This document shows positions 4,434-43,808 of a stretch of DNA of 64,000 bases, piece after piece (position 1 is the stretch's first letter; each line of letters opens with the position of its first letter). Source of the stretch: Paracoccaceae bacterium (GTDB lineage Bacteria; Pseudomonadota; Alphaproteobacteria; Rhodobacterales; Rhodobacteraceae); contig DAOLBY010000001.1 in the NCBI GenBank assembly GCA_035324325.1, positions 4,453 to 68,452 on the forward strand, written 5' to 3'. The position numbers and the translations under genes are program-made. The notes beneath the pieces were generated by a model. The model had not been told where the DNA came from and searched no databases. It was given only the letters and a program-made list of their open reading frames with translations.

Positions 4434-4684
4434 GGCGCCTCCGGCGGCACGGCACCGGACATGGCGCGCCCGCCGACCGGCCACAGGACGGCGCGCGTGG
4501 CACGGAACGGATCCGGCACGTCCTGCCTGCGGTGGAACTCGGTCACGGCACCAGCCTTTCTTCCAACCCGGGAGCGCCGTCCATCCGATGCCGACAAAGA
4601 CGGCATTAATTCAACGAAAGAACGGCTTTTCTGTCCCGGAATCCCTGCTGCCATCCTGCCGCCGGAATTCCGGCGATGCACCCC

Positions 4685-27413: not shown

Positions 27414-28970
27414 TCACAGCCCCGGCACGAAGCGCGGCAGGGGGCGCAGGACCTCGGCCATGGCCTGCTGCAGGCGGGCCTCGGCCTCGGCCGCGCCGCC
27501 GGCGCCGATCGGCACGATCAGGCGCACCAGCGCGCTGTCGCTGCGCCCGTTGGTCAGCTTGCCGGCGAGCAGCTGCAGCTTGGCGGTCAGGCCCGAGGCG
27601 GTGCGCCGGCCCTGCTGCTCGAACCAGTAGTAGACCAGCATCCGCTCGGTGCCCTTCTGGATCACCGCGCGGTTGAGGCTGAAGGCGCCCTCGACGGGAT
27701 GCTGCGCCTCGATCCGGCGCAGTTCGGCGATCTCCCAGCCGCCGCCGGGCAGGCAGACCTCGGGCGAATGCACGCCGCCCTGCAGGTCGTCGCGGTACCA
27801 GGCGAGGAAGAGGTCGACCGGCGCCCCGCCCGCCCGGGCGAGCAGCACCGAATGGTAGTCGTCGGCGGCCAGGATGCGCTCGACATCGGGTTCGAGCATG
27901 CGGTGCGGGCCGGCCTGCCAGTCGCCCAACTGCGCCGGGAACAGCGCGAAGGGATCGCGCGTCACCGTCACCGGCGGGCGCCCCGCCGCGGCCAGCGCCC
28001 GCGACGGCTCGATCAGCCGCAGCCGCAGCGCCTGGGTGCCGAGCCCCGCGGTGTCGAGGTCGAGCGCCTCGGCCAGGCCCGGCCGGTCGCGGCGCAGCCG
28101 CAGCATCACCCAGGCCAGCGCGAACAGCAGCAGCACGCAGGACAGGAAGATCACCCAGCCCTCGAAGAAATGGCTGAAGCCCTCGACATGCTCCATCCCC
28201 CAGCGGTCCACGATCACCCCGGCCAGCGCGATCCGCACCGAGTTCATCAGCACCGTGATCGGCGCCGCCGAGACGAGCAGCACCGCCTTGTGCCACATCG
28301 GCCCGCGGTAGAGCACCGCGAAGATGTAGCTGAAGGACAGGATCGGAAACAGGTAGCGCAGCCCCGAGCAGGCCTCGGCCACATGCAGCTTGTAGACCCC
28401 GAGGTCGATGATGTTGCCCTCGAGGAAGACCGGCACGCGCAGCAACTGCAGGAACCACACGCCAAGCTCGGAGGAGATGCCCTGCAGCCAGGTCGAGACC
28501 CCGTAGTAGAGCGCCCCGGGCAGCGGCAGCATGTAGACGAGATGCAGCACCGGCGGCCAGAACCCCCGCCCCTGCCGCCAGCCGAACGCGATCAGCAGGA
28601 TCGCCCCGGCCCAGAGGATCAGCCCGTAGGCGACGATGTCGCCGATGCCGAGCAGCTGCCCCGCCGCGCCGAGCGCCAGCGCCAGGACGAGCAGTGCCAG
28701 CCCCGGGCCGCGGTCGGTCACCGGGCCGGGGATCACCGGCTCGCCCTTCAGCTGGCGCAGGAACAGCAGCAGCGACAGCAGCGGGATCAGCGGCCCGTGG
28801 CTGTATTCCGGCAGCGCCCAGGCCCGCAGCAGTTCGGCCAGCCCGTCGCGGAAGAACAGCCCCGCCCCGGCGACGGCCAGCAGCAGCCAGCCCACACCGG
28901 GGGTGACAAGCCCGCCGAGACGGCGCGGCGCGCGGCGGGAGGGGGCCGGGGAGGGGCCGGTCACGGACAT
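27414..28970 (-). CDS. xrtD: Exosortase fused to an EpsI-family domain (XrtD-like, VPLPA-CTERM-specific by context)
   Basis: ATG 28970..28968; an alternative ATG lies 20 codons upstream at 29030. Exosortase hallmarks are PEYSHGPLIP, catalytic Cys in HVAEACSGLRYL, Arg in VLMNSVRIAL and His in FSHFFEGW. The C-terminal ~200 aa has the EpsI signature HSPEVCLPGGGWEI...YYWFEQQGR. The symbol is assigned from the adjacent VPLPA-type cargo, not from an alignment. Confidence 0.85.
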   Translation of the reverse strand: MSVTGPSPAPSRRAPRRLGGLVTPGVGWLLLAVAGAGLFFRDGLAELLRAWALPEYSHGPLIPLLSLLLFLRQLKGEPVIPGPVTDRGPGLALLVLALALGAAGQLLGIGDIVAYGLILWAGAILLIAFGWRQGRGFWPPVLHLVYMLPLPGALYYGVSTWLQGISSELGVWFLQLLRVPVFLEGNIIDLGVYKLHVAEACSGLRYLFPILSFSYIFAVLYRGPMWHKAVLLVSAAPITVLMNSVRIALAGVIVDRWGMEHVEGFSHFFEGWVIFLSCVLLLFALAWVMLRLRRDRPGLAEALDLDTAGLGTQALRLRLIEPSRALAAAGRPPVTVTRDPFALFPAQLGDWQAGPHRMLEPDVERILAADDYHSVLLARAGGAPVDLFLAWYRDDLQGGVHSPEVCLPGGGWEIAELRRIEAQHPVEGAFSLNRAVIQKGTERMLVYYWFEQQGRRTASGLTAKLQLLAGKLTNGRSDSALVRLIVPIGAGGAAEAEARLQQAMAEVLRPLPRFVPGL

Positions 28971-29216
28971 CGTCGGTCTTTCGCTCGGCGCGCCCGGATG
29001 CGGCGCGGGTTCGGGGGCGGGCGGCATCATAGACGGGGGATCGCGGCAAAACCATGCCCGCCCGGCCCCGCCGCGGCGGGGCCGGGCCGCCGGTTGCGCA
29101 TTCACGAACGATCGGACCCGGATCGCCACAATTCTGCCCGGAATGGGCGCAAATCTCGGCGCCGGGGCGGGGTGGCGCCGGGACGGCGCCGGACAGGACC
29201 GGGAGAGGACGACAGG

Positions 29217-29420
29217 ATGGGCCTTGCAATCGTCGGCACGATCTCCGGCCTCCTCGCCGCGGCGGCGGCGCTGCTGGCCGGACAGCCCTGGTGGATGGCG
29301 CTCGCCCTGCATGCCGGAGCCGGCGCGCTGGCGCTTCTGGCGGCGGCGGCCGTGGTGGCCGCCCGGCGGCCCGGAACCGCGGCCGCACCCGCCGCCGCGC
29401 TTGAATCCACGCCGGGCTGA
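29217..29420 (+). CDS. Possible small 2-TM membrane protein (67 aa)
   Basis: ATG 29217 is preceded by GGGAGAGGACGACAGG. Translation MGLAIVGTISGLLAAAAALLAGQPWWMALALHAGAGALALLAAAAVVAARRPG.... High GC3. It is the tail of the spurious track ORF 26961..29420. No family recognised. Confidence 0.35.
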   Translation: MGLAIVGTISGLLAAAAALLAGQPWWMALALHAGAGALALLAAAAVVAARRPGTAAAPAAALESTPG

Positions 29421-29697
29421 GCCCCGCGGGGCCGCAGATTCGCCCCGCCTTCGCCCCGCGGCCTCCCGGGCAGCGCGGACCGTCCCCGCCGGATCGACAA
29501 TGGCCCGGCCAGGCCGCGACCGTGGAGCCGGCGGCAACCGGCCCCGGCCCGCCGCACAACCCCGGGATGTATCTTCGGCCCGGGCCCCGATGGCCCTTGG
29601 AGTGCGCCGCGGTTTGTGACACATCTCGGGGATGGGGGTGCCTGCGGTATTCGCCGCAGAATTCGTCAATGGTCATTGCGCCTGGGAGCGTTTTCAC

Positions 29698-30351
29698 ATG
29701 TTCGCGCTGAATGGGATCAAGGCACTGGCCGCGGCCCTCGTCCTGTCGGGGGGCCTGGCCGGCCAGGCCGGGGCGGTCACCTACCATTTCGACAACATCA
29801 CCGGCAACAACGCCGAACATGCCGCGGCCGGCGCCGCGCAGCTGTTCCTCGATGTCGACCTGGTGGACGACGCGGTGCATTTCGTGTTCCGCAACGCCGG
29901 ACCGCTGCAGATGACGGTCGCCAACCTCTACATCGACCACGGCACCACCGCGCTCATCCAGAACGCCTCGGTCGGCGCGGCGTCGGAGGGGGTGGAGTTC
30001 GCGGGCGGCGGCACGCCCGTCAACGTGCCCCGCGGCAACACCGTCGGCTTCTACGCCGACGACACCTTCTACACCACCCGGCCCCGGGTGCATTACGGGA
30101 TCAACGTGCTCGAGTTCCAGACGATCGTCTACGAACTCGTCGCCGGGACGACCTTCTCCGACCTGATCGCGGCGCTCGATGCGGGCAACCTGCGGGCCGG
30201 CCTGCATGTGATCAACTTCATCGGCGGCGGCCGGGAAAGCTTCGTCAGCGGGGCGCAGGTCGTCCCCATCCCGCTGCCGGCCACGGGCCTGCTGCTGGTC
30301 GGCGCGCTCGGCGGGCTGGTGCTGCTGCGCCGCCGCCGTCCGGCGGCCTGA
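29698..30351 (+). CDS. VPLPA-CTERM sorting-domain protein, paralogue 1
   Basis: ATG 29698 (SD GGGAGCG). Signal peptide MFALNGIKALAAALVLSGGLAGQAGA. C-terminus VPIPLPATGLLLVGALGGLVLLRRRRPAA, i.e. motif, TM helix and Arg cluster. Confidence 0.85.
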   Translation: MFALNGIKALAAALVLSGGLAGQAGAVTYHFDNITGNNAEHAAAGAAQLFLDVDLVDDAVHFVFRNAGPLQMTVANLYIDHGTTALIQNASVGAASEGVEFAGGGTPVNVPRGNTVGFYADDTFYTTRPRVHYGINVLEFQTIVYELVAGTTFSDLIAALDAGNLRAGLHVINFIGGGRESFVSGAQVVPIPLPATGLLLVGALGGLVLLRRRRPAA

Positions 30352-30404
30352 GGGCGCGCGGGGGGCTTCGCCCCGCGGCCCGCACGACCTTCGCAAGGCA
30401 GAGC

Positions 30405-30430
30405 AGGCGGTCCCCCGGGGCCGCCTTTCG
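30405..30430 (+). terminator. Hairpin downstream of VPLPA paralogue 1 (weak intrinsic-terminator candidate)
   Basis: AGGCGGTCCCC-CGGGG-CCGCCT followed by TTCGCGTT. An equivalent hairpin follows paralogue 2. Confidence 0.35.
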
Positions 30431-30783
30431 CGTTCCGGGCCGCGCGGGCCGGGGCGCGGGCGGCTCCGCCCGCCTGAATCCCCGGCCCGAAACCCCGGCC
30501 TGAATCCCCGGCCCGAAACCCCCGCCGATTCGCCCTTTCCCGCGCGCCGCGGCCTCCTGCGCGCCGCAAACCGCCGCGAACCGTTGCCGCCCGGTCGACA
30601 ATCGGCCGGAACCGGCGGAACCCTGGCCCGGATGGCGAAGGGATCCGGCTCGCCGCGCAACCCGGGGATGTATCTTCGGCCCGGGGCGCCCCGGCGCTTG
30701 GACCGTCGCACGGATTGTGGCAATACTGCGGCAGGGTCTGTGCAACACCCTGTACCGTCTATTGCGCCCGAAGGAGATTTCGC

Positions 30784-31437
30784 ATGTTCGCGCTGGATCG
30801 GATCAAGACATTGGCCGCCGTGGCGGCACTCGTGCTTTCGGGGGGCCTGGCGGAGCGGGCCGAGGCGGTCACCTACAACTTCGAGAACATCACCAACAAC
30901 AACGCCGCGGATGCCGCGGCCGGCGAGGCGCAGCTGTTCCTCGACGTGAATCTGGTCGGCGGCGCGGCGCATTTCGTGTTCAGCAACCTCGGCCCGCTGC
31001 AGATGACGATCGCCAACATCTACTTCGATTTCGGCCTCACCAGCCTGCTCGGCGGCGGATCGGTCGGCGCGGCCTCGCCGGGGGTAACCTTCGTGGCGGG
31101 CGGCGCGCCCCCCGACGTGCCTGGCGGCGCGCCCATCGGCTTCACGTCCGATGACCGCTATTCCGCGACCAACCCCGCACCGCACAACGGGGTCAACGTT
31201 CCCGAGTTCCAGACCATCGTCTACGAACTCCTGGCCGGGACGACCTTCGCCGACCTGATCGCGGCGCTCGATGCGGGCAGCCTGCGCACCGCCATCCATG
31301 TGATCAACTACGCAAGCGGCGGCAGCGAGAGCTTCGTGAACGCCCCGACCCCGATCCCGCTGCCGGCCACGGGCCTGCTGCTGATCGGCGCGCTCGGCGG
31401 GCTGGTGCTGGTGCGGCGGCGCCGCCCGGCGGCCTGA
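30784..31437 (+). CDS. VPLPA-CTERM sorting-domain protein, paralogue 2
   Basis: ATG 30784 (SD GAAGGAG). Signal peptide MFALDRIKTLAAVAALVLSGGLAERAEA. C-terminus TPIPLPATGLLLIGALGGLVLVRRRRPAA. Collinear similarity to paralogue 1 along its whole length. Confidence 0.85.
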   Translation: MFALDRIKTLAAVAALVLSGGLAERAEAVTYNFENITNNNAADAAAGEAQLFLDVNLVGGAAHFVFSNLGPLQMTIANIYFDFGLTSLLGGGSVGAASPGVTFVAGGAPPDVPGGAPIGFTSDDRYSATNPAPHNGVNVPEFQTIVYELLAGTTFADLIAALDAGSLRTAIHVINYASGGSESFVNAPTPIPLPATGLLLIGALGGLVLVRRRRPAA

Positions 31438-31491
31438 GGGCGCGCGGGGGGTCCCCGCGGCCCGACCCGGCAACACAACCAGGATACGGCG

Positions 31492-31515
31492 CAGGCGGCC
31501 CCCCAGGGCCGCCTG
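31492..31515 (+). terminator. Hairpin downstream of VPLPA paralogue 2
   Basis: Perfect 9-bp stem CAGGCGGCC / GGCCGCCTG with a 6-nt loop. The T-tract is poor (TCGCGTTCC). Confidence 0.4.
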
Positions 31516-31551
31516 TCGCGTTCCGGGGGGACGGGGTTCGGGAAGCCGGCG

Positions 31552-31647
31552 TCAGCAGCAGGGCGGGCGCGGGCCGTCGAAGCCGCGCAGCAGCATCGCC
31601 GCGCAGAGGCAAAGGCCGAGGCCGATCAGGACAGCGCCGGTCAGCAT
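31552..31647 (-). CDS. Possible 31-aa hydrophobic peptide (below ORF-track size cutoff)
   Basis: ATG 31647..31645 is preceded by GAAGGGGAGGCGGGCGA (strong SD). Translation MLTGAVLIGLGLCLCAAMLLRGFDGPRPPCC then stop. No family recognised. Confidence 0.3.
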   Translation of the reverse strand: MLTGAVLIGLGLCLCAAMLLRGFDGPRPPCC

Positions 31648-32013
31648 TCGCCCGCCTCCCCTTCGCGACGCGCCTGCCACCGCGGCAGACGGAACCGGAT
31701 CCAGCCAAGCGCCGAATCATGGCGGAACCCGGGCGCCGCCGTGGCCTTGCCGTGGCCTTGCCCGCGAACCGCCGGCACGTTGACGCCGCGGCAACAGATA
31801 CACCCCTTGCGTGAAACTGTCGCCGCACCGGCCGTGCCCGCACAACCCCTGCCTGAAAAGCGCCCGCCCGGAAAGGTTTCGCTTTCTCCGCGCGGGGCGA
31901 TCGGCCATTCTCTGCCCGAGGTCGCGTCCGTTCGGGCGGGCCTTTGCCACAAGCCGATAGCGTGACCCATAGCGCGACCCGATGTGCGACAACCTGATTT
32001 CGGAGTGCAAGGA

Positions 32014-32742
32014 ATGAATGTGACCAGTACCCTGCGCGGCGGCATTCTGGCGCTCGCGCTCGCCTTCGGGGCCGGAACGGCCGGGGCCACGCCCATCCAG
32101 GTCGAACAGCAGGTGACCGGCGGCTGGAACGCGGTCTTCGGCGGCAACGGCTATGCCAATGCGACGATCAGCGGCCCGGCGCTGGCCGGCGGATCCTCGG
32201 TCACCGTCGCCGCGGGCGGCTTCGCGCTGACCGCCGAGGGGCTCGGCGATTTCGTGGCCTTCTGCCTCGACATCAACACCTGGCTCTCGCTGCCCTCGTA
32301 TTATGCCGTCACCGAAACGCCCTTCTCGGGCGGGCCGGCGCTGCTGACCACCACGCAGCGCAACAACATCCAGGCGCTGTTCAACACCGGATACGCGGGG
32401 CTGAACCTCGGGTCGAACACCGATTCCGCGGCCTTCCAGATCGCGCTCTGGGAAGTGCTCTACGACAGTTCCGGCAGCCTCAACCTCGGCGCGGGCAATT
32501 TCATCGTGTCGAGCACGACGGCGGTGATCAACCGCGCCGCGGGCCTCCTGGCCGGGCTCGCCGGTCCGGCGACCGGCGTCTACGAACTGACCTGGCTGCA
32601 GTCGCTCGACGGCCCGGATGCCAACAGCTACCGCGACAGCCAGAACCTCGTCACCGCCACGCCGATCCCGCTGCCGGCAGGCGGGCTTCTCCTGGTCTCG
32701 GCGCTCGGCCTGATGTTCCTGCGCCGGCGCCGGACCGCCTGA
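32014..32742 (+). CDS. VPLPA-CTERM sorting-domain protein 3 with thioester-domain-like Cys and Gln motifs
   Basis: ATG 32014 (AAGGA just upstream). Signal peptide MNVTSTLRGGILALALAFGAGTAGA. C-terminus TPIPLPAGGLLLVSALGLMFLRRRRTA. Internal DFVAFCLDINTW and DSAAFQIALWEVLYD. Confidence 0.8.
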   Translation: MNVTSTLRGGILALALAFGAGTAGATPIQVEQQVTGGWNAVFGGNGYANATISGPALAGGSSVTVAAGGFALTAEGLGDFVAFCLDINTWLSLPSYYAVTETPFSGGPALLTTTQRNNIQALFNTGYAGLNLGSNTDSAAFQIALWEVLYDSSGSLNLGAGNFIVSSTTAVINRAAGLLAGLAGPATGVYELTWLQSLDGPDANSYRDSQNLVTATPIPLPAGGLLLVSALGLMFLRRRRTA

Positions 32743-33465: not shown

Positions 33466-34437
33466 TCAGCCGCCGGCCCGGGTGGCGCGCAGCCAGCCCA
33501 GGAAGGCGCGGTCGGGGCTGCGCAGCCGCGGCCGGCCCGACCCGTCCCAGAAGCCGCGCCAGGCGGCGGCGAGGGCATGGACATCGGCGCCGGGGGCCAG
33601 CGCGCGGGCGGCATCCAGCGTCTCGGGCGCCAGATGCGGCCCCTCGCCGGGCAGCAGCACCGGCGCGCGCGGCGCCACGCGCAGGATGTCGCCGGGCATC
33701 TCCTCCAGCCGGTAGTCGGGCAGGCGGTCCTCGCGGATGATCTCGCGCAGCATGGCGCGGAAGACGCGCAGCGGGCTGGCCGAGCCCGACTTCTTGGCCA
33801 GCGTGGCGACCGAGACGCGCCATTCGGGCTGCCGGCCGCAATGCTTGCGCGACAGTTCGTAGATGCGCCGCTCCAGCGGCTTGCGCAGGCCGAAGTAGTC
33901 GCGGCTGAGCGTCAGCACCGAGCGCGACAGCACCGCCTGGAACAGCCAGTCCGACAGCGTGACCGAGACCGAGACCATGCGCCCGGCGCGGGTGCGGCGC
34001 ACGATCTCCCAGGCCTCGATCAGGCCGAAGCCGCTGGTGATCTCGGCCTCGCCGGTGACGATGTTGGTGGTGATGCGCGTGCCCACCAGCCGCTCGAAGG
34101 CCTCGCGCAGCCGGGCATAGCCGTCGCCCGAGGTCTCGCGGTGGGTGGCGGTCAGCAGGTCGTGCGCGGTCAGCGTCAGCCGGCGCGAGACGGCGCGGCC
34201 GGCGTTCAGCGCCGCCATCAGCTGGCTGATGCAGAAGATCAGGATGTCGGCATCGAAGATCGTCGCCCGGCCGCGCACCGAGGGGGTGACGGTGATCGAG
34301 CAGCCGTTGTGCTCGTAGCTGAGCACGCGGCGGTCGGGCCGGGTCGAGAGCGAGAAGAGCGGATGCTCCATCGAGGCGAGGTCGTGCTTGGGCACCGCCG
34401 CGAAGAGGTCGCAGACGAAGAAGTCCTGCGTCACCAC
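33466..34437 (-). CDS. repA: Plasmid replication initiator RepA (replication initiator protein A family)
   Basis: Family blocks FVCDLFAAVPKHDLASMEHPLFSLSTRPD..LSYEHNGCSITVTPSVRGRATIFDADILIFCISQL. The GTG at 34437 is preferred because the 69 codons up to the ATG at 34644 have clearly lower GC3 (about 83% versus about 97%) and are Arg/Gly-rich. The longer ORF 33466..34644 remains possible. Confidence 0.8.
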   Translation of the reverse strand: MVTQDFFVCDLFAAVPKHDLASMEHPLFSLSTRPDRRVLSYEHNGCSITVTPSVRGRATIFDADILIFCISQLMAALNAGRAVSRRLTLTAHDLLTATHRETSGDGYARLREAFERLVGTRITTNIVTGEAEITSGFGLIEAWEIVRRTRAGRMVSVSVTLSDWLFQAVLSRSVLTLSRDYFGLRKPLERRIYELSRKHCGRQPEWRVSVATLAKKSGSASPLRVFRAMLREIIREDRLPDYRLEEMPGDILRVAPRAPVLLPGEGPHLAPETLDAARALAPGADVHALAAAWRGFWDGSGRPRLRSPDRAFLGWLRATRAGG

Positions 34438-34659
34438 CGCCGGTGCCCGGCCGGCCGCCCGGCCCTCGGCGGTGCCCCCCGCCCGTGCGCTGCCCGTTGC
34501 GGAGGTGGATGCCACCCGCCCTGCCCCTTCCTGCCCCGGGGGCCGCCTCCGGCCCGTTTCCCCGCTCGCCTCCCGCAGCCGCGTGTGCGCGCGCGCGCCC
34601 CGGGGTTCCCCCCTTCGCCGGCCCGGCGGGATTCGTCGTTTCATTGACGCCCAGAGTAG

Positions 34660-34668
34660 TTATCCACA
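34660..34668 (+). promoter_or_regulatory. Consensus DnaA box TTATCCACA in the oriV region
   Basis: Exact 9-mer read at 34660-34668, upstream of repA. Confidence 0.7.
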
Positions 34669-34732
34669 GGCGCAGCGTCCAGCCTCGCGACCATCCGGGG
34701 CGGCGGCGGGGGGCCGGACCGGCGCCCCGATC

Positions 34733-34792
34733 GGGGGATCGGAGTCGCCTCGACGGGGGATCGGAGTCGCGTCATCGTGGGATCGGAATCGC
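34733..34792 (+). repeat. Three direct iteron-like repeats (oriV)
   Basis: GGGGGATCGGAGTCGC at 34733-34748 and 34755-34770, and GGGATCGGAATCGC at 34779-34792. Spacing is 22 and 24 bp. Each contains GATC and a GANTC site. Followed by an AT-rich patch GTAACAGACTAGATAACGCAGATCTAACGG at 34858-34887. Confidence 0.7.
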
Positions 34793-35001
34793 CCTGGCCC
34801 GGAACACCCCCGGAAAACCCTTGGCACTCAGGGAGATGACGGCAGGGCACGGCACCCGTAACAGACTAGATAACGCAGATCTAACGGCATGCAGGCGCCC
34901 GGGGGCTGCCGCTGCCCCCGGGCGGGGCGGCAGCGCGGCGGGCCAGGGCGGCAAGACTGCCGAGAAAAGCGGCACGGACCCCGGCCATGTCCGCTTTTTC
35001 C

Positions 35002-35051
35002 TTCCATGTATCGCGTTTTCCGGTATCTTGCCGGAAACGCGATACATGGAA
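35002..35051. promoter_or_regulatory. 21-bp inverted repeat upstream of parA (operator or centromere-like candidate)
   Basis: TTCCATGTATCGCGTTTTCCGG - TATCTTG - CCGGAAACGCGATACATGGAA. One extra T in the left arm. Ends 68 bp before the parA ATG. Confidence 0.55.
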
Positions 35052-35118
35052 GGAGATCGCGCATGGGGCGGCAGGCAGGAACGGGCAGGCGGGGCCTTGC
35101 GGCCGGGCGGCGGCGGCC

Positions 35119-36501
35119 ATGAGCATCGAGGCGCTTCCCCCCTATTTCAACATCGTGCCCGACCGGGCGCTGGCCGGGCTGGGGCCGCCGGCGGGCACCA
35201 CCGATCTGGCCGCCATCGCCGCCGCCTGCCGCCAGGGCCGCGAGGACCTGGCGGCGCGCGGGCTCGACGAGGCCGGGGCGCGGCGGCTGCGGCAGTTCTC
35301 GACCTGGGAGATCACCAAATACCTCATCCCGGTGGCGCCGGCGCATTTCCGTCGGGTGCTGCGGCTCAACCCCGACCTGCCGCAGGGCCGCAGCGAGACC
35401 GAGGGCGGCATGCGCTGGTTCACCCTCGACGAGGTGCTGCGGCTGCGGGCGCATTTCGGCGCCGAGGGGTCGAAGGCCAAGGAATACCTGCCCTACCGGC
35501 CGCGCGGCCTGCCGGCCAAGATCGTCGCCGTGGCCAATTTCAAGGGCGGCGTCGGCAAGACCTCGACGGCGGCGCATCTGGCGATGTCGGCCGCGCTCGA
35601 CGGCTACCGGGTGCTGGTCGTCGACCTCGACAGCCAGGGCTCGATGTCCTCGATCTTCGGCGCCCGGGTGGCCGACGAATGGGGCACGGTGTTTCCGCTG
35701 ATCGCGCGCCACTACGCCGAGGCGCTGCGCGCCGAGAACCAGCGCCGCATCGACCGGGGCGAGGCGCCGCAGCCGCTCGACGACACGCTGGCCGAGGCGC
35801 TGAAGCTCGGGGTCGGGGATGTCATCCGCCCCACCCACTGGCCCAACATCGACCTCATCGGGGCGCAGCTCAACCTCTACTGGGCCGAGTTCCAGATCCC
35901 CGTCTGGCGCATGGCCTCGCGCGGCTGGAAGCTGTGGGACGCGCTGACCGAGATGCTGGCCGCCGGCGGGGTGCTCGACCGCTACGACCTCGTCTTCCTC
36001 GATACCCCGCCGGCGCTCGGCTACCTGACGATCAACGGGCTGGCGGCGGCCGACATCCTGCTCGTGCCCTTCGGCGCCTCCTTCCTGGAGTTCGATTCCA
36101 CCGGGCGCTTCTTCGACATGCTGCATGCCACCTTCGCCTCGATCGAGGAGGGCGAGAACATCGCCGCCCGCGCCCTCGGCCGGCCCGAGCTGCGCTTCGA
36201 ATGGGACGCGGTGCGCGCCGTGATCACCCGCTACGACGCCAGCCAGCAGGCCGAGATGGCGGGGCTGATCCAGGCCTGGATGGGGCGCATCCTGTCGCCG
36301 CACCGGCAGGACTTCACTGCCCTGATCGGCCAGGCCGGCGAGCAGGTGCACGGCATCTACGAGGCCGACTACCGCGACTTCAACCGCGAGACCTATGCCC
36401 GCGGGCGCGAGACCTTCGACCAGACCTATGCCGCCTTCAAGACGCTGCTCCTGGGCATCTGGCGGCGCGAGGAACTGGCGGCCGGACGGGCGGCGGAATG
36501 A
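35119..36501 (+). CDS. parA: ParA-family partition ATPase with N-terminal extension
   Basis: ATG 35119 (MSIEALPPYFN...). Deviant Walker A VANFKGGVGKTSTAAHL, plus VVDLDSQGS and LVFLDTPPALG. Confidence 0.9.
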   Translation: MSIEALPPYFNIVPDRALAGLGPPAGTTDLAAIAAACRQGREDLAARGLDEAGARRLRQFSTWEITKYLIPVAPAHFRRVLRLNPDLPQGRSETEGGMRWFTLDEVLRLRAHFGAEGSKAKEYLPYRPRGLPAKIVAVANFKGGVGKTSTAAHLAMSAALDGYRVLVVDLDSQGSMSSIFGARVADEWGTVFPLIARHYAEALRAENQRRIDRGEAPQPLDDTLAEALKLGVGDVIRPTHWPNIDLIGAQLNLYWAEFQIPVWRMASRGWKLWDALTEMLAAGGVLDRYDLVFLDTPPALGYLTINGLAAADILLVPFGASFLEFDSTGRFFDMLHATFASIEEGENIAARALGRPELRFEWDAVRAVITRYDASQQAEMAGLIQAWMGRILSPHRQDFTALIGQAGEQVHGIYEADYRDFNRETYARGRETFDQTYAAFKTLLLGIWRREELAAGRAAE

Positions 36502-36520
36502 GCCGCCCGGCGGCGCCCCC

Positions 36521-36536
36521 GTTTCGCGCGCGAAAC
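36521..36536. promoter_or_regulatory. 16-bp perfect palindrome GTTTCGCGCGCGAAAC, copy 1 (parS-like)
   Basis: Read directly. Lies 20 bp after the parA stop and upstream of parB. Confidence 0.6.
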
Positions 36537-36694
36537 ATGCGCCGTCCCCTGCCCCGCGTCCTGCTGCCCGTCCTGCCGCGCCTCCCGGGCCGGCCGCCGT
36601 CTTCGCCCGATCTTCACCTCCGGCCCCGCAGTCTCGGCGCCCGACCCGCCGCAGGAGACCGCAGATGCGCCGCAACCGGAAAGGCCGAACCGCC

Positions 36695-37771
36695 ATGGCC
36701 CGCCGCCGCCTGACCCCCGCCCGCACCGATCTTGCCCTGCCCGAGGCCCGGCCCCCCGCGCCGGCCGCCGCCGCGGCGCTGATCGGCGCGCCGATCGCGC
36801 GCGTCGCCGGCGAGGCCGCGGCCACCGCGGCGCTGCACGAGGTCTCGGCCGAACTGGCCGCGGCGCGGTCCGAGGGGCGGCTGGTGCTGCGCCTGCCGCT
36901 CGCGGCGGTCGAGACCGGCTGGCTGATGCGCGACCGCGCCGGCATCGACGAGGAGGACCTGGCGCCGCTGCTCGCCTCGCTGGCCGCGCATGGCCAGCGC
37001 ACCCCGGTCGAGGTGGCCGAGATCGGCCCCGGGCGCTACGGGCTGATCTCGGGCTGGCGGCGGATGACGGCGCTGGCGCGGCTGCGGGCCGAGACCGGCG
37101 AGGCGCGCTTCGGCGAGGTGCTGGCGCTGCTGCGCCGGCCCGAGGGCGCCGGCGCGGCCTATGTCGCCATGGTCGAGGAGAACGAGATCCGGCTGGGGCT
37201 GAGCCATTACGAGCGCGCCCGCATCGTCGCCCGGGCCGCCGAGGGCGGCGTCTTCGAGACCGACCGCGCGGCGCTGCAGGCGCTCTTTGCCGCCGCCAGC
37301 CGGGCCCGGCGCTCCAAGATCGGCTCGTTCCTGGCCATCGTGCGGGCGCTCGACCCGGTGCTGCGCTTCCCCGCCGCGATCCCCGAACGCCTGGGCCTGG
37401 CGCTGGCGCGCTGGATCGAGACCGCGCCGGCGGCGGCGGCGCGGCTGGCCGCCGAGCTGGCCGCCGATCCCGCCCCCGATGCCGCCGCCGAACTGGCGCG
37501 GCTGGCGGCGGCGCTGCGCCCCGGTGCCGCCGCGGGTCCCTCTCCCGGCCCCTCCCCCGGGGCGGCGGCCGGGCCGGGGACGGAGGACGGGACGGCGCCG
37601 GGGGGCGGGACCGGTGACGAAGCCCGCACCGAGGGGGCGGTGGAACTGCGCCCCGGGCTCTGGCTGCGCGCCGAGGGCGGCTTCCTGCGGCCGCGGCTGA
37701 CGCTCTGGGGGCCGGCGCTCGACCCGGGGCTGCGCGAGCGGCTGGAACACTGGCTGCGCGATGGCGGCTGA
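36695..37771 (+). CDS. parB: ParB-family partition protein
   Basis: ATG 36695 is preceded by GGAAAGG; an alternative ATG is at 36665. ParB N-domain features RTPVEVAEIGPGRYGLISGWRRMTALARL and ENEIRLGLSHYERA. Confidence 0.85.
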   Translation: MARRRLTPARTDLALPEARPPAPAAAAALIGAPIARVAGEAAATAALHEVSAELAAARSEGRLVLRLPLAAVETGWLMRDRAGIDEEDLAPLLASLAAHGQRTPVEVAEIGPGRYGLISGWRRMTALARLRAETGEARFGEVLALLRRPEGAGAAYVAMVEENEIRLGLSHYERARIVARAAEGGVFETDRAALQALFAAASRARRSKIGSFLAIVRALDPVLRFPAAIPERLGLALARWIETAPAAAARLAAELAADPAPDAAAELARLAAALRPGAAAGPSPGPSPGAAAGPGTEDGTAPGGGTGDEARTEGAVELRPGLWLRAEGGFLRPRLTLWGPALDPGLRERLEHWLRDGG

Positions 37772-41745: not shown

Positions 41746-43203
41746 ATGCGATCGAAGGTCCGGGGGGGCGCCCGCGCCCCCGTTTCGCCCGTGGCGCCGC
41801 CCGGGATGCCCCCGGGGGTGCAGGCCGCGCCGCGGCTGCGGTCCTGGGCCTTCTGCGCCGTGCTGGTGCTGGCCGCCTGCACCCCGGGCATGCCCTACCA
41901 GCGCCCCGAGCAGCGGCTGCCCGACCGCTACGGCCTGCTCGTGCCGGTGGCCGCGCCGGCGGCGGAGGACCGGCACTGGTGGCGCGCCTTCGGCGACCCG
42001 GTGCTCGACGGGCTGGTGACGGCCGCGCTCGAGGGCAATCTCTCGCTGGCCGAGGCGCGGGCGCGGCTGGCCGAGGCCGAGGCCCAGGCGATGCGCGCCG
42101 GGGCGGCGCGCATCGGCGGCGACGGCCGGCTGGAACTGCGCCGCGCCAACCCGGACGGCGAGCAGACCGCCGAGGCCGGGGTCAGTGTCGCGCTCGACCT
42201 CTCGGGCGGGCGGGGCGCGGAATGGCGCGCGGCGCTGGCCCGGCTCGAGGCGGCGCGCGCCGCCGAGGCCGATGCGCGGCGGCTGCTGGTCGCCGACCTG
42301 GCCGCGACCTATGTCGACCTGCGCTTCTTCCAGGCCCGCCAGCAGCAGCGCCAGGAGGACCACCGCTCGCGCCAGCGCACGCTGAACGACATCTCGGCCC
42401 AGGTCGAGGCCGGCGCCGCGACCGAGCTCGACCGCATCCGCGCCCGCGCGCTCTTGGCCGAGACGCGGGCCGAACTGCCGCGGCTCGACGCCGCCGTGCT
42501 GCGCCAGCGCAACCGGATCTCGACGCTGCTCGGCCGGCCGGCGGGCGATCTCGGCCTGTCGCTGGCCTATGGCGGGCGCCAGCCGCTGCCGCGCGGGCTG
42601 CCGCGGCTCGGCGTGCCGGCGGATCTGCTGCGCAACCGGCCCGACATCGCCCGGGCCGAGCGGCTCTATGCCGCCGCGGTCTCCGCCATCGATACCGCCG
42701 AGGCGGCGCGCTACCCCTCGCTCAGCCTCTCGGGGCTGATCCGGGCGCCGCTGGCGGGCGGCGGCACCGGCAACACCCTGGCCGCGGCGGTCACGCTGCC
42801 GCTGCTGTCGCAGCCGGCGCTGGCGGCCGGTGCGCAGGCGGCGCGGGCGCGCGCGGCGGCGGCGCTGGCGCAGTGGCGCCGGGCGGTGATCACCGCCGTC
42901 GAGGAGGTCGAGAACGCGCTGGCGGCGCTGCAGGGCGCGCATCGGGCGGCGCAGGCGGCGGGGCAGGCGGTGGCGCTGAACGCCGAGGCGCTGACGCTGA
43001 CGCGGCGGGTGATCGAGGAGCGCGGCAACGTCACCACGCTCGACCTGCTCGACCGCGAGCGTGCGGTCTCCGAGGCGCGCGGCCTGCTGGCCCAGACCCG
43101 GCGCGAGGTCGGGCTCGAATATGTCGCGCTGCGCACCGCGCTCGGCCTCGGCTTCGCCTGGGAGACGCTGGAGGGCGGCACGCCGGCGGCGACGGCGCCC
43201 TAG
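41746..43203 (+). CDS. Outer membrane factor lipoprotein (NodT/TolC family)
   Basis: ATG 41746 (MRSKVRGG...). Lipobox VLVLAAC. Two OEP-type repeats (WWRAFGDPVLDGLV, LLRNRPDIARAE). Confidence 0.85.
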   Translation: MRSKVRGGARAPVSPVAPPGMPPGVQAAPRLRSWAFCAVLVLAACTPGMPYQRPEQRLPDRYGLLVPVAAPAAEDRHWWRAFGDPVLDGLVTAALEGNLSLAEARARLAEAEAQAMRAGAARIGGDGRLELRRANPDGEQTAEAGVSVALDLSGGRGAEWRAALARLEAARAAEADARRLLVADLAATYVDLRFFQARQQQRQEDHRSRQRTLNDISAQVEAGAATELDRIRARALLAETRAELPRLDAAVLRQRNRISTLLGRPAGDLGLSLAYGGRQPLPRGLPRLGVPADLLRNRPDIARAERLYAAAVSAIDTAEAARYPSLSLSGLIRAPLAGGGTGNTLAAAVTLPLLSQPALAAGAQAARARAAAALAQWRRAVITAVEEVENALAALQGAHRAAQAAGQAVALNAEALTLTRRVIEERGNVTTLDLLDRERAVSEARGLLAQTRREVGLEYVALRTALGLGFAWETLEGGTPAATAP

Positions 43204-43808
43204 CCGCGCAGGCGGTGCATCAGGAGCGGGGCCGCGGCGAGGCCGCCGAGGGCGCCGCCGAGATGGGTCTGCCAGGCGATGCCGCCGGCCAGCGTCCAGT
43301 CCATGGCGAGATTGAGCGCCGCCCCCCCCGCCGCCGCCGCGGCCAGGAGCGCCGCCGCCGCCCCCCGCCGCCCGGCCCGCCAGCGCGCCCCCGCCGCCGC
43401 CAGGGCCGCCAGCACGGCCAGCCCGAAGAGCACCCCCGAGGCGCCCACCATCGGCCGGTCGACCGGGCCGAGCGCGGCAAAGCCGAGGCCCCCGGCGGCC
43501 AGCAGCCACAGATGCAGCGCGGCGAACCGCGCCGCCCCGAGGCCCCGCGCCAGCGGCCCGCCGAGCGCCAGGAAGGCCATCATGTTGGCCAGCAGGTGCA
43601 GCAGTCCCGCATGCAGGAAGCCATGGGTGAGGAACATCGTCCAGGGCTGGGCCGGCCAGTTGGGCCGCCAGTCGCGCAGCAGCCCGGTCCAGAAGCCGCC
43701 GTTCTGGTAGGCCAGCGGGCGCCAGCGCGCCGAGCCCCAGAGCCCGAGGTCGGCGCCCTGCAGCGCCAGTTCGGGCAGGATGCAGGCCAGCGCCAGCGCC
43801 AGCAGCAC
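43200..43808 (-). CDS. Rhomboid-family intramembrane serine protease
   Basis: 202-aa ORF. Motifs HGFLHAGLLHLLANM, catalytic GASGVLFGL and distal HLGGAL. Its stop overlaps the OMF stop (shared CTAG at 43200-43203). Confidence 0.8.
   Translation of the reverse strand: MLLALALACILPELALQGADLGLWGSARWRPLAYQNGGFWTGLLRDWRPNWPAQPWTMFLTHGFLHAGLLHLLANMMAFLALGGPLARGLGAARFAALHLWLLAAGGLGFAALGPVDRPMVGASGVLFGLAVLAALAAAGARWRAGRRGAAAALLAAAAAGGAALNLAMDWTLAGGIAWQTHLGGALGGLAAAPLLMHRLRG

Follow-up and report, generated by a model that had tools for sequence, protein, structure and literature searches.

Tandem duplication of a VPLPA-CTERM cargo gene at a Paracoccaceae XrtD locus and a conserved upstream box that may serve as an activator site

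The stretch of DNA analysed here (the window; 64,000 nt, positions 4,453 to 68,452 of contig DAOLBY010000001.1, assembly GCA_035324325.1) comes from a Paracoccaceae bacterium and is GC-rich DNA of a plasmid-like replicon. It carries a tandem pair of genes encoding VPLPA-CTERM proteins, the presumptive cargo of an adjacent XrtD exosortase, and a conserved block upstream of each gene of the pair is the main subject of this report. Coordinates are those of the window, and features lie on the plus strand unless stated otherwise. The exosortase, which has a fused EpsI domain, is encoded on the minus strand at 27414-28970 (its start codon is ambiguous, at either 28970 or 29030); it scores 595 bits against TIGR04152 (cut-off 400) and matches the Pfam families Exosortase_EpsH and DUF3485. 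XrtD is the likely sorting enzyme for the cargo proteins. Three cargo genes come next on the plus strand (29698-30351, 30784-31437 and 32014-32742), and a profile search of the 3.56-Mb genome found VPLPA-CTERM genes nowhere other than at this locus. The third gene is unrelated to the pair; its product ends in IPLPAGGLLL...RRRR and has a weak match to the Pfam thioester domain (TED) that is below the cut-off (E = 0.0063).

The start codons of the paired genes, 29698 and 30784, are 1086 bp apart. An earlier reading of these letters alone (the sequence-only reading) had proposed a tandem gene duplication that includes the flanks, and pairwise alignment, the repeat finder and the open reading frames (ORFs) bear out both the duplication and the spacing. 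Similarity between the duplicates spans ~29430/30521 to ~30465/31550, and repeat families D1-D10 are spaced 1086-1101 bp. In each unit of ~1.09 kb, ~270 nt of upstream DNA precede the coding sequence, whose stop codon is directly followed by one hairpin; a second hairpin, GC-rich and terminator-like, lies further on. Unit 1 (29430-30520), as delimited by the alignment and the repeat families, also includes a junction repeat, and unit 2 covers 30521-31550. The duplication is far above chance and is not an assembly artefact, because the copies are ~20% diverged.

The first hairpin of gene 1 (30352-30381) has its partner at 31438-31463. The terminator-like hairpins, reported before as equivalent, are located at 30403-30427, with a T-poor tail, and at 31491-31516, where a U-G to C-G change strengthens the stem; they are 92% identical. 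The segment 31438-31530, which contains the hairpin of gene 2, folds with z = -2.7. A consensus terminator scan called neither hairpin, because the T run is weak. At the junction of the two units, a direct repeat of 24-25 bp had been described; the repeat is real and is better viewed as four tandem 13-nt units, CCSGCCYGAAWCC (30469-30520, repeat family D6). The junction unit CCGGCCCGAAACC resembles the reverse complement of GGGGTTCGGGAAGCCGG, found just downstream of unit 2 (31533-31549), a likeness that may show where the duplicated segment originally ended.

The two paralogous cargo proteins are 217 residues long, with a beta-sandwich between an N-terminal signal peptide and a C-terminal VPLPA-CTERM sorting signal. 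In hmmscan searches with TIGR03370, copy 1 scores 24.8 bits, just below the cut-off of 25.35, and copy 2 scores 29.0 bits; in the genome-wide search both exceed the cut-off, at 33.3 and 29.0 bits. Both have the hallmark C-terminus, composed of a (V/I)PLPA motif, a hydrophobic helix and an Arg-rich tail, and the cognate XrtD is encoded in the genome. Signal peptides read from the translations are MFAL..LSGGLAGQAGA/VTY and ..LAERAEA/VTY. The AlphaFold2 model of copy 2 (pLDDT 89) shows a signal helix at residues 3-21, a beta-sandwich with two short helices and a C-terminal transmembrane helix. Foldseek found no significant fold relative in the PDB (best E = 0.008, TM ≤ 0.36), and Pfam recognised no domain in the pair. 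The proteins are 69% identical (dN 0.22, dS 0.29, pS 0.24). Derived residue changes number 24 in copy 1 and 10 in copy 2; copy 1 is the faster-evolving copy, and its core promoter also strays furthest from the orthologue consensus in the anchored alignment of upstream regions described below. One stretch of 102 nt (30264-30365 versus 31350-31451), running from the CTERM sorting domain through the stop codon to the first bases after it, is 94% identical, well above the 76% observed at synonymous sites, and could be a gene-conversion tract or a region constrained at the nucleotide level.

Upstream of the pair, an exact 21-mer, GGGATGTATCTTCGGCCCGGG, occurs at 29564-29584 and 30665-30685; with up to three mismatches allowed, neither the rest of the window nor the 3.56-Mb genome contains another copy, and shuffled sequences contain none. 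The near-identical block noted before both ATGs in the sequence-only reading is confirmed and extends to 41 nt (29544-29584 and 30645-30685), 38 of which are identical. Its distance from the ATGs, given as about 115-130 nt, needs correction, as the block begins 141 and 126 nt and ends 113 and 98 nt before the respective ATGs. A second, distal block, GGATCGACAATGGCCCGG (29491-29508; partner GGTCGACAATCGGCCGG at 30593-30609), was not found in orthologues, save for the reversed string GACAATGG in locus L012. Upstream DNA outside the block is 63.5% identical when ungapped and 56.5% identical with gaps, and conservation within the unit is lowest in the predicted 5' untranslated region (UTR), with 54% identity and a 15-nt indel. 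Most of the flanking similarity is probably leftover shared ancestry, as neutral decay predicts. Against this non-coding background, a window of 38/41 identities has a simulated chance of P = 0.002-0.008.

The cargo family is broad but sparse, with 199 relatives in metagenome contigs and members in 4 of 400 genomes of the same bacterial family. The four homologues from the 400 genomes are all distant, and a separate genome scan likewise gave distant relatives only; a metagenome scan yielded 80 loci at 37-52% identity. The close clade comprises three further members with 53-58% protein identity, found at metagenome loci L012/L013, L014 and L015, and a second protein search added none. The upstream regions of window copies 1 and 2 are referred to as W1 and W2. 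When the 250 nt located 5' of each gene were scanned with the left 15 nt of the block, along with 84 control upstream regions, this 15-mer, CAAYCC-N3-GRTGYA, was found in two of the three closest orthologues: L012 matches at 13 of 15 positions (CAACCCGGGGGTGCA, at -134) and L015 at 12 of 15 (CAATCCCAAGATGTA, at -120). Shuffle frequencies are ~5e-4 and ~4e-3, respectively, and the best control region reaches 11/15. In the window, the 15-mer is found at -141 in W1 (CAACCCCGGGATGTA, 29557-29571) and at -126 in W2 (CAACCCGGGGATGTA, 30658-30672); both sites score 23.8 with a position weight matrix (PWM), and the next best site in the window scores 14.5. The expectation that the motif is conserved at orthologous loci holds for the left 15 nt in L012 and L015, and does not hold for the right half with its second CCCGGG arm.

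The 15-mer is positioned at a fixed distance from a second conserved feature. In an anchored alignment of five upstream regions, the start of the 15-mer is 40, 40, 41 and 40 nt upstream of a TTG trinucleotide in the four sequences that have it (W1, W2, L012 and L015). This trinucleotide begins a shared promoter-like pair, TTG(C/G)A-N18-CA, in which the -35-like hexamers TTGGAG, TTGGAC, TTGCAA, TTGCAG and TTGCAC are followed, after 17 nt, by the -10-like hexamers CACATC, CAATAC, CAAAAC, CATAAA and CATAAT, mostly preceded by TGn. The regular expression TTG[CG]A-N18-CA.A matches W1, L012, L015 and L014, one of the 84 controls and 0.3-0.4% of shuffled sequences. L014 has no significant 15-mer, yet its promoter, TTGCAC-17-CATAAT with TGn, is the closest to consensus; the pair lies equally far from the ATG, in a gap of just 117 nt that follows a glycosyltransferase gene. 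Such an arrangement would be consistent with a site required solely by promoters whose -10 element is weak.

The data do not support a general motif of VPLPA-CTERM or PEP-CTERM genes. The upstream regions of 19 other VPLPA-CTERM genes, taken from five related, Rhodobacteraceae-type genomes, lack the box and have no site in common, and the region upstream of the third cargo gene in the window lacks it as well. Within its own genome, the composite site occurs only at the two paralogues, looser matches falling in apparent coding frames (AAC-CCG-xxG-ATG codon-like strings), and no further good PWM match is located upstream of any window gene. Two weaker likenesses were recorded. In copy 1 only, an inverted box, CATCCCCGAGATGTG (29620-29634, minus strand; PWM 13.3, rank 5 in the window), lies over the predicted -10 element and start; it could be due to chance, or copy 1 could have a second binding site of its own. 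In L012, CAACCCCGCCGGATTG (305-320) is located ~146 nt before the ATG of a second, unrelated VPLPA-CTERM gene (451-1146); its half-sites are box-like with a longer spacer, and the match is not statistically secure.

The arrangement of the two elements suggests promoters of the sigma-70 type. In copy 1 the predicted promoter (29597-29625) consists of TTGGAG, 17 nt and CACATC, with TGn before the -10 element; in copy 2 (30698-30726) it consists of TTGGAC, 17 nt and CAATAC. The predicted -35 elements are at 29597-29602 and 30698-30703, the predicted -10 elements are at 29620-29625 and 30721-30726, and transcription is predicted to start at A residues at ~29632 and ~30733. A consensus sigma-70 scan of the region called no promoter. 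At class-I activator-dependent sigma-70 promoters, of which those bound by CRP are an example, the activator dimer is centred near -61.5 or -71.5. The present sites similarly combine an imperfect palindrome at about -68, a recognisable -35, a weak -10 and a TGn extension; their sequence is unlike CRP/FNR, LuxR or CtrA boxes. We consider it probable, on comparative sequence grounds, that the core of the block is an activator site near -68 of a sigma-70-type promoter, and that this site has been kept in both copies. From motif content and spacing we infer which sigma factor is used, where transcription starts and that the site activates rather than represses; class-I activation is favoured over repression because of the position of the site and the weak -10 elements.

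According to this model, a whole single-gene XrtD cargo transcription unit, composed of control site, promoter, 5' UTR, coding sequence and two hairpins, would have been copied in tandem, and both paralogues would therefore stay under the same control. The functional core would be the left 15 nt, an imperfect palindrome (CAACCC / GGGATG), set 40-41 nt upstream of the -35-like TTG(C/G)A, which is followed by 17 nt and a weak -10 (CAWAAN, with TGn before it). A putative activator would bind the 15-mer in class-I geometry, centred near -68, and switch on both paralogues together. With starts at ~29632 and ~30733, the block would exert control at the DNA level and lie outside the leader RNA. The block had been described as part of a 5' leader; it is probably not transcribed, because it lies upstream of the conserved -35/-10-like pair.

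Several observations weigh against an activator site at a sigma-70-type promoter. The -10 hexamers are weak, and CAATAC of W2 does not match the regular expression. The site was observed in four independent sequences only, two of which are themselves paralogues. No regulator gene was found in the window, and no other gene of the genome carries the composite site. With synonymous sites (76% identical) as the neutral yardstick, 38/41 identities between the paralogues alone are nothing unusual (P = 0.23). A GG-N10-GC pattern, as found in sigma-54 promoters, is aligned in three of the five sequences, namely W2, L012 (AGGCAAAACTGGGGC) and L015 (TGGCATAAACGTGGC).

The GG-N10-GC pattern bears on the alternative closest to a known system. 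Most PEP-CTERM genes are single-gene operons preceded by long stretches of upstream DNA; those of Proteobacteria have a PrsR/sigma-54 cis-regulatory region in common, and PEP-CTERM genes expand by lineage-specific paralogy (Haft et al. 2006, BMC Biol 4:29, PMC1569441). The "PEP-CTERM box" begins with the PrsR site, motif 1, a 17-mer that ends in TTTACA; after a spacer of ~63 nt (range 32-92 nt) comes a sigma-54 -24/-12 motif (PMC1569441). The block could correspondingly be the site of an enhancer-binding protein, a diverged PEP-CTERM box, at a sigma-54-dependent promoter; copy 2 would keep a usable -24/-12 element in TGGCAATACTGCGGC (30718-30732), a weak sigma-54-like string that its predicted sigma-70-type promoter overlaps, and copy 1 would have lost it. 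It agrees with such a loss that copy 1, which has no GG/GC dinucleotides there, is the faster-evolving copy. Moreover, sigma-54 promoters are enriched upstream of distant cargo homologues (21/72 forward, 4 reverse, 3.2 in shuffles), several of which have a perfect TGGCAC-N5-TTGC. In metagenome loci L031 and L057, a TGTCGG...ACA 17-mer (TGTCGGCGGAACTTACA or TGTCGGACGCATTAACA) is found ~60 nt 5' of such a perfect element, an arrangement that matches motifs 1 and 2 of Haft et al. 2006 (PMC1569441). The genome also encodes rpoN and several enhancer-binding proteins.

The details of the pair nevertheless make sigma-54 control unlikely. In GC-rich DNA, sigma-54 matches of 7-8/10 are expected by chance (P(≥7) = 0.44, P(≥8) = 0.09), and the scores obtained, 7/10 in W2 (at 30718) and 8/10 in W1 (at 29591, a position not aligned with that in W2), are both within chance. 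W1 and L014 have no GG/GC at the aligned position, where W1 reads GA..GG, yet they keep the TTGCA-17-CAnAAn pair; the conserved TTGCA 17 nt upstream is unexplained by sigma-54, under which the -12 element would read GGCA, not TGCA. The block ends ~30 nt 5' of the putative -24, less than the 32-92 nt spacer range reported (PMC1569441), and no TT[TA]ACA, TGTAAA or TGT-N10-12-ACA is present in 29420-29700 or 30440-30786. In the genome search, the best match to the PrsR model scores 349 bits (cut-off 502.6) and the best match to the PrsK model scores 97 bits (cut-off 300) and is limited to the kinase domain, an absence that is not absolute, as the genome is 94% complete.

Somewhat less probable still is a block without function, preserved as residual identity or as a gene-conversion tract between young paralogues. 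At 76% identity, a 38/41 window or an exact run of 21 nt arises in about one-quarter of simulations, and the 94%-identical stretch across the stop codon hints at gene conversion in this pair. The block is, however, an outlier compared with the actual non-coding background (57-64% identity). The verdict depends on the baseline, and thus the paralogue pair alone leaves the constraint on the block unsettled. The orthologues tip the balance against neutral persistence: although their proteins are just 53-58% identical and their DNA visibly differs in G+C, L012 and L015 have the left half of the block at the same offset from the shared promoter-like pair.

The sequence-only reading had left the choice among a promoter, an operator and a leader RNA hairpin. 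The orthologue site and its fixed geometry favour the promoter or operator, and folding, Rfam and covariation speak against the hairpin. The CCCGGG arms around AUGUAUCUUCGG are able to pair, but they are not conserved in orthologues; the right arm is not conserved in either L012 or L015. Leader and block fold no better than shuffled sequences (z-scores -0.5, -0.2, +0.5 and -0.5; range -0.54 to +0.46). RNAalifold revealed no conserved structure in a small sample of four leader sequences (-4.4 kcal/mol), and the covariation analysis proposed earlier gave no support (term -0.06). Rfam 15 returned nothing at E ≤ 5 on either strand of 28800-32200. A short upstream ORF was also considered, as an ATG within the block is followed by an open frame in both copies (MYLRPG...); the putative peptide diverges straight after the block, the L015 frame stops right past the site (FNPKM*), and this candidate was rejected because the frame is not conserved. 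Transcription of the block as a leader RNA hairpin (a riboregulator, an attenuator or a small-RNA target) or as part of such an upstream ORF is thus very improbable.

Compared with the PEP-CTERM box, the locus shows both likenesses and differences. The cargo unit is likewise a single gene with a non-coding upstream region of ~270 nt, the cargo paralogues share an upstream site whose distance from a promoter element is constant, and in this same cargo family distant homologues have the PEP-CTERM box itself. In contrast, no TTTACA or TGT-N11-ACA motif is found here and the sigma-54 match is within chance; the site is 25 nt from a -35-like TTGCA, no PrsR or PrsK exceeds the cut-off in the genome, and the sorting enzyme is XrtD, not XrtA. 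The locus thus follows the general PEP-CTERM pattern and lacks the defining features of the PrsR/sigma-54 box, which points to a cargo-specific box of another kind. We suggest, more tentatively than the activator site itself, that the close XrtD cargo clade may have swapped the classical PrsR/sigma-54 box for an undescribed module composed of a 15-bp box at -68, a sigma-70-type promoter and a dedicated putative activator.

The duplication itself is ordinary, because tandem VPLPA-CTERM pairs are common in the same bacterial family. VPLPA-CTERM genes are present in 152 of 401 genomes of the family, and pairs ~0.85-1.1 kb apart were found in at least six of these (for instance G133, G012, G336, G370, G173 and G152); in the two pairs that were compared, the N-termini look paralogous. 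As in other expansions of PEP-CTERM or VPLPA-CTERM cargo by paralogy, the copies lie beside their own exosortase. Unlike other expansions, only three cargo genes are present here, all at the XrtD locus of a plasmid-like replicon, and the cargo family is rare in the bacterial family (4/400 genomes).

The replication and partition genes of the window (RepA of the RPA family, ParA and a ParB/RepB-like gene) are located at 33466-37771. The window also contains a large exopolysaccharide cluster encoding glycosyltransferases and Wzy-like, Wzz/GNVR and Poly_export proteins, together with a PrsT-like TPR protein, a type I secretion set and a rhomboid-family gene. The latter (43200-43808) is located 12 kb from the cargo genes. 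Genes of this family directly adjoin the orthologous cargo gene in L012 (1154-1804) and L014 (1252-1902); across the three loci, the products have 202-216 residues and are weakly rhombosortase-like (25-45 bits, cut-off 84), and the family may provide an accessory protease of XrtD loci. Two small ORFs flank the duplication. The first (29218-29420) could encode a 67-residue protein with two hydrophobic helices and no Pfam match; its stop codon lies just ahead of the start of unit 1, and its antisense frame stretches the apparent XrtD ORF to 29669. The second, on the minus strand between cargo genes 2 and 3 (31552-31647), is a hydrophobic ORF of 31 codons, MLTGAVLIGLGLCLCAAMLLRGFDGPRPPCC, with GGAGG 7-8 nt 5' of the ATG.

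Full-text literature searches gave a single paper with a passing mention of VPLPA-CTERM and nothing on XrtD; the regulation of exosortase systems other than XrtA is essentially unstudied. Duplication of cargo genes and shared upstream sites are already expected for PEP-CTERM systems, and the new detail is in this sense modest. The 15-bp box and the predicted promoter provide a handle for finding the regulator, and the box may help to ask when cargo of the plasmid-borne exopolysaccharide/XrtD locus is deployed. The paralogue pair is also a small, clean case of asymmetric divergence after tandem duplication. If the proposed replacement of the PrsR/sigma-54 box is true, it would represent a regulatory rewiring of an exosortase cargo family, seen alongside a recent duplication after which the protein and the core promoter of one copy have been diverging more quickly than those of the other.

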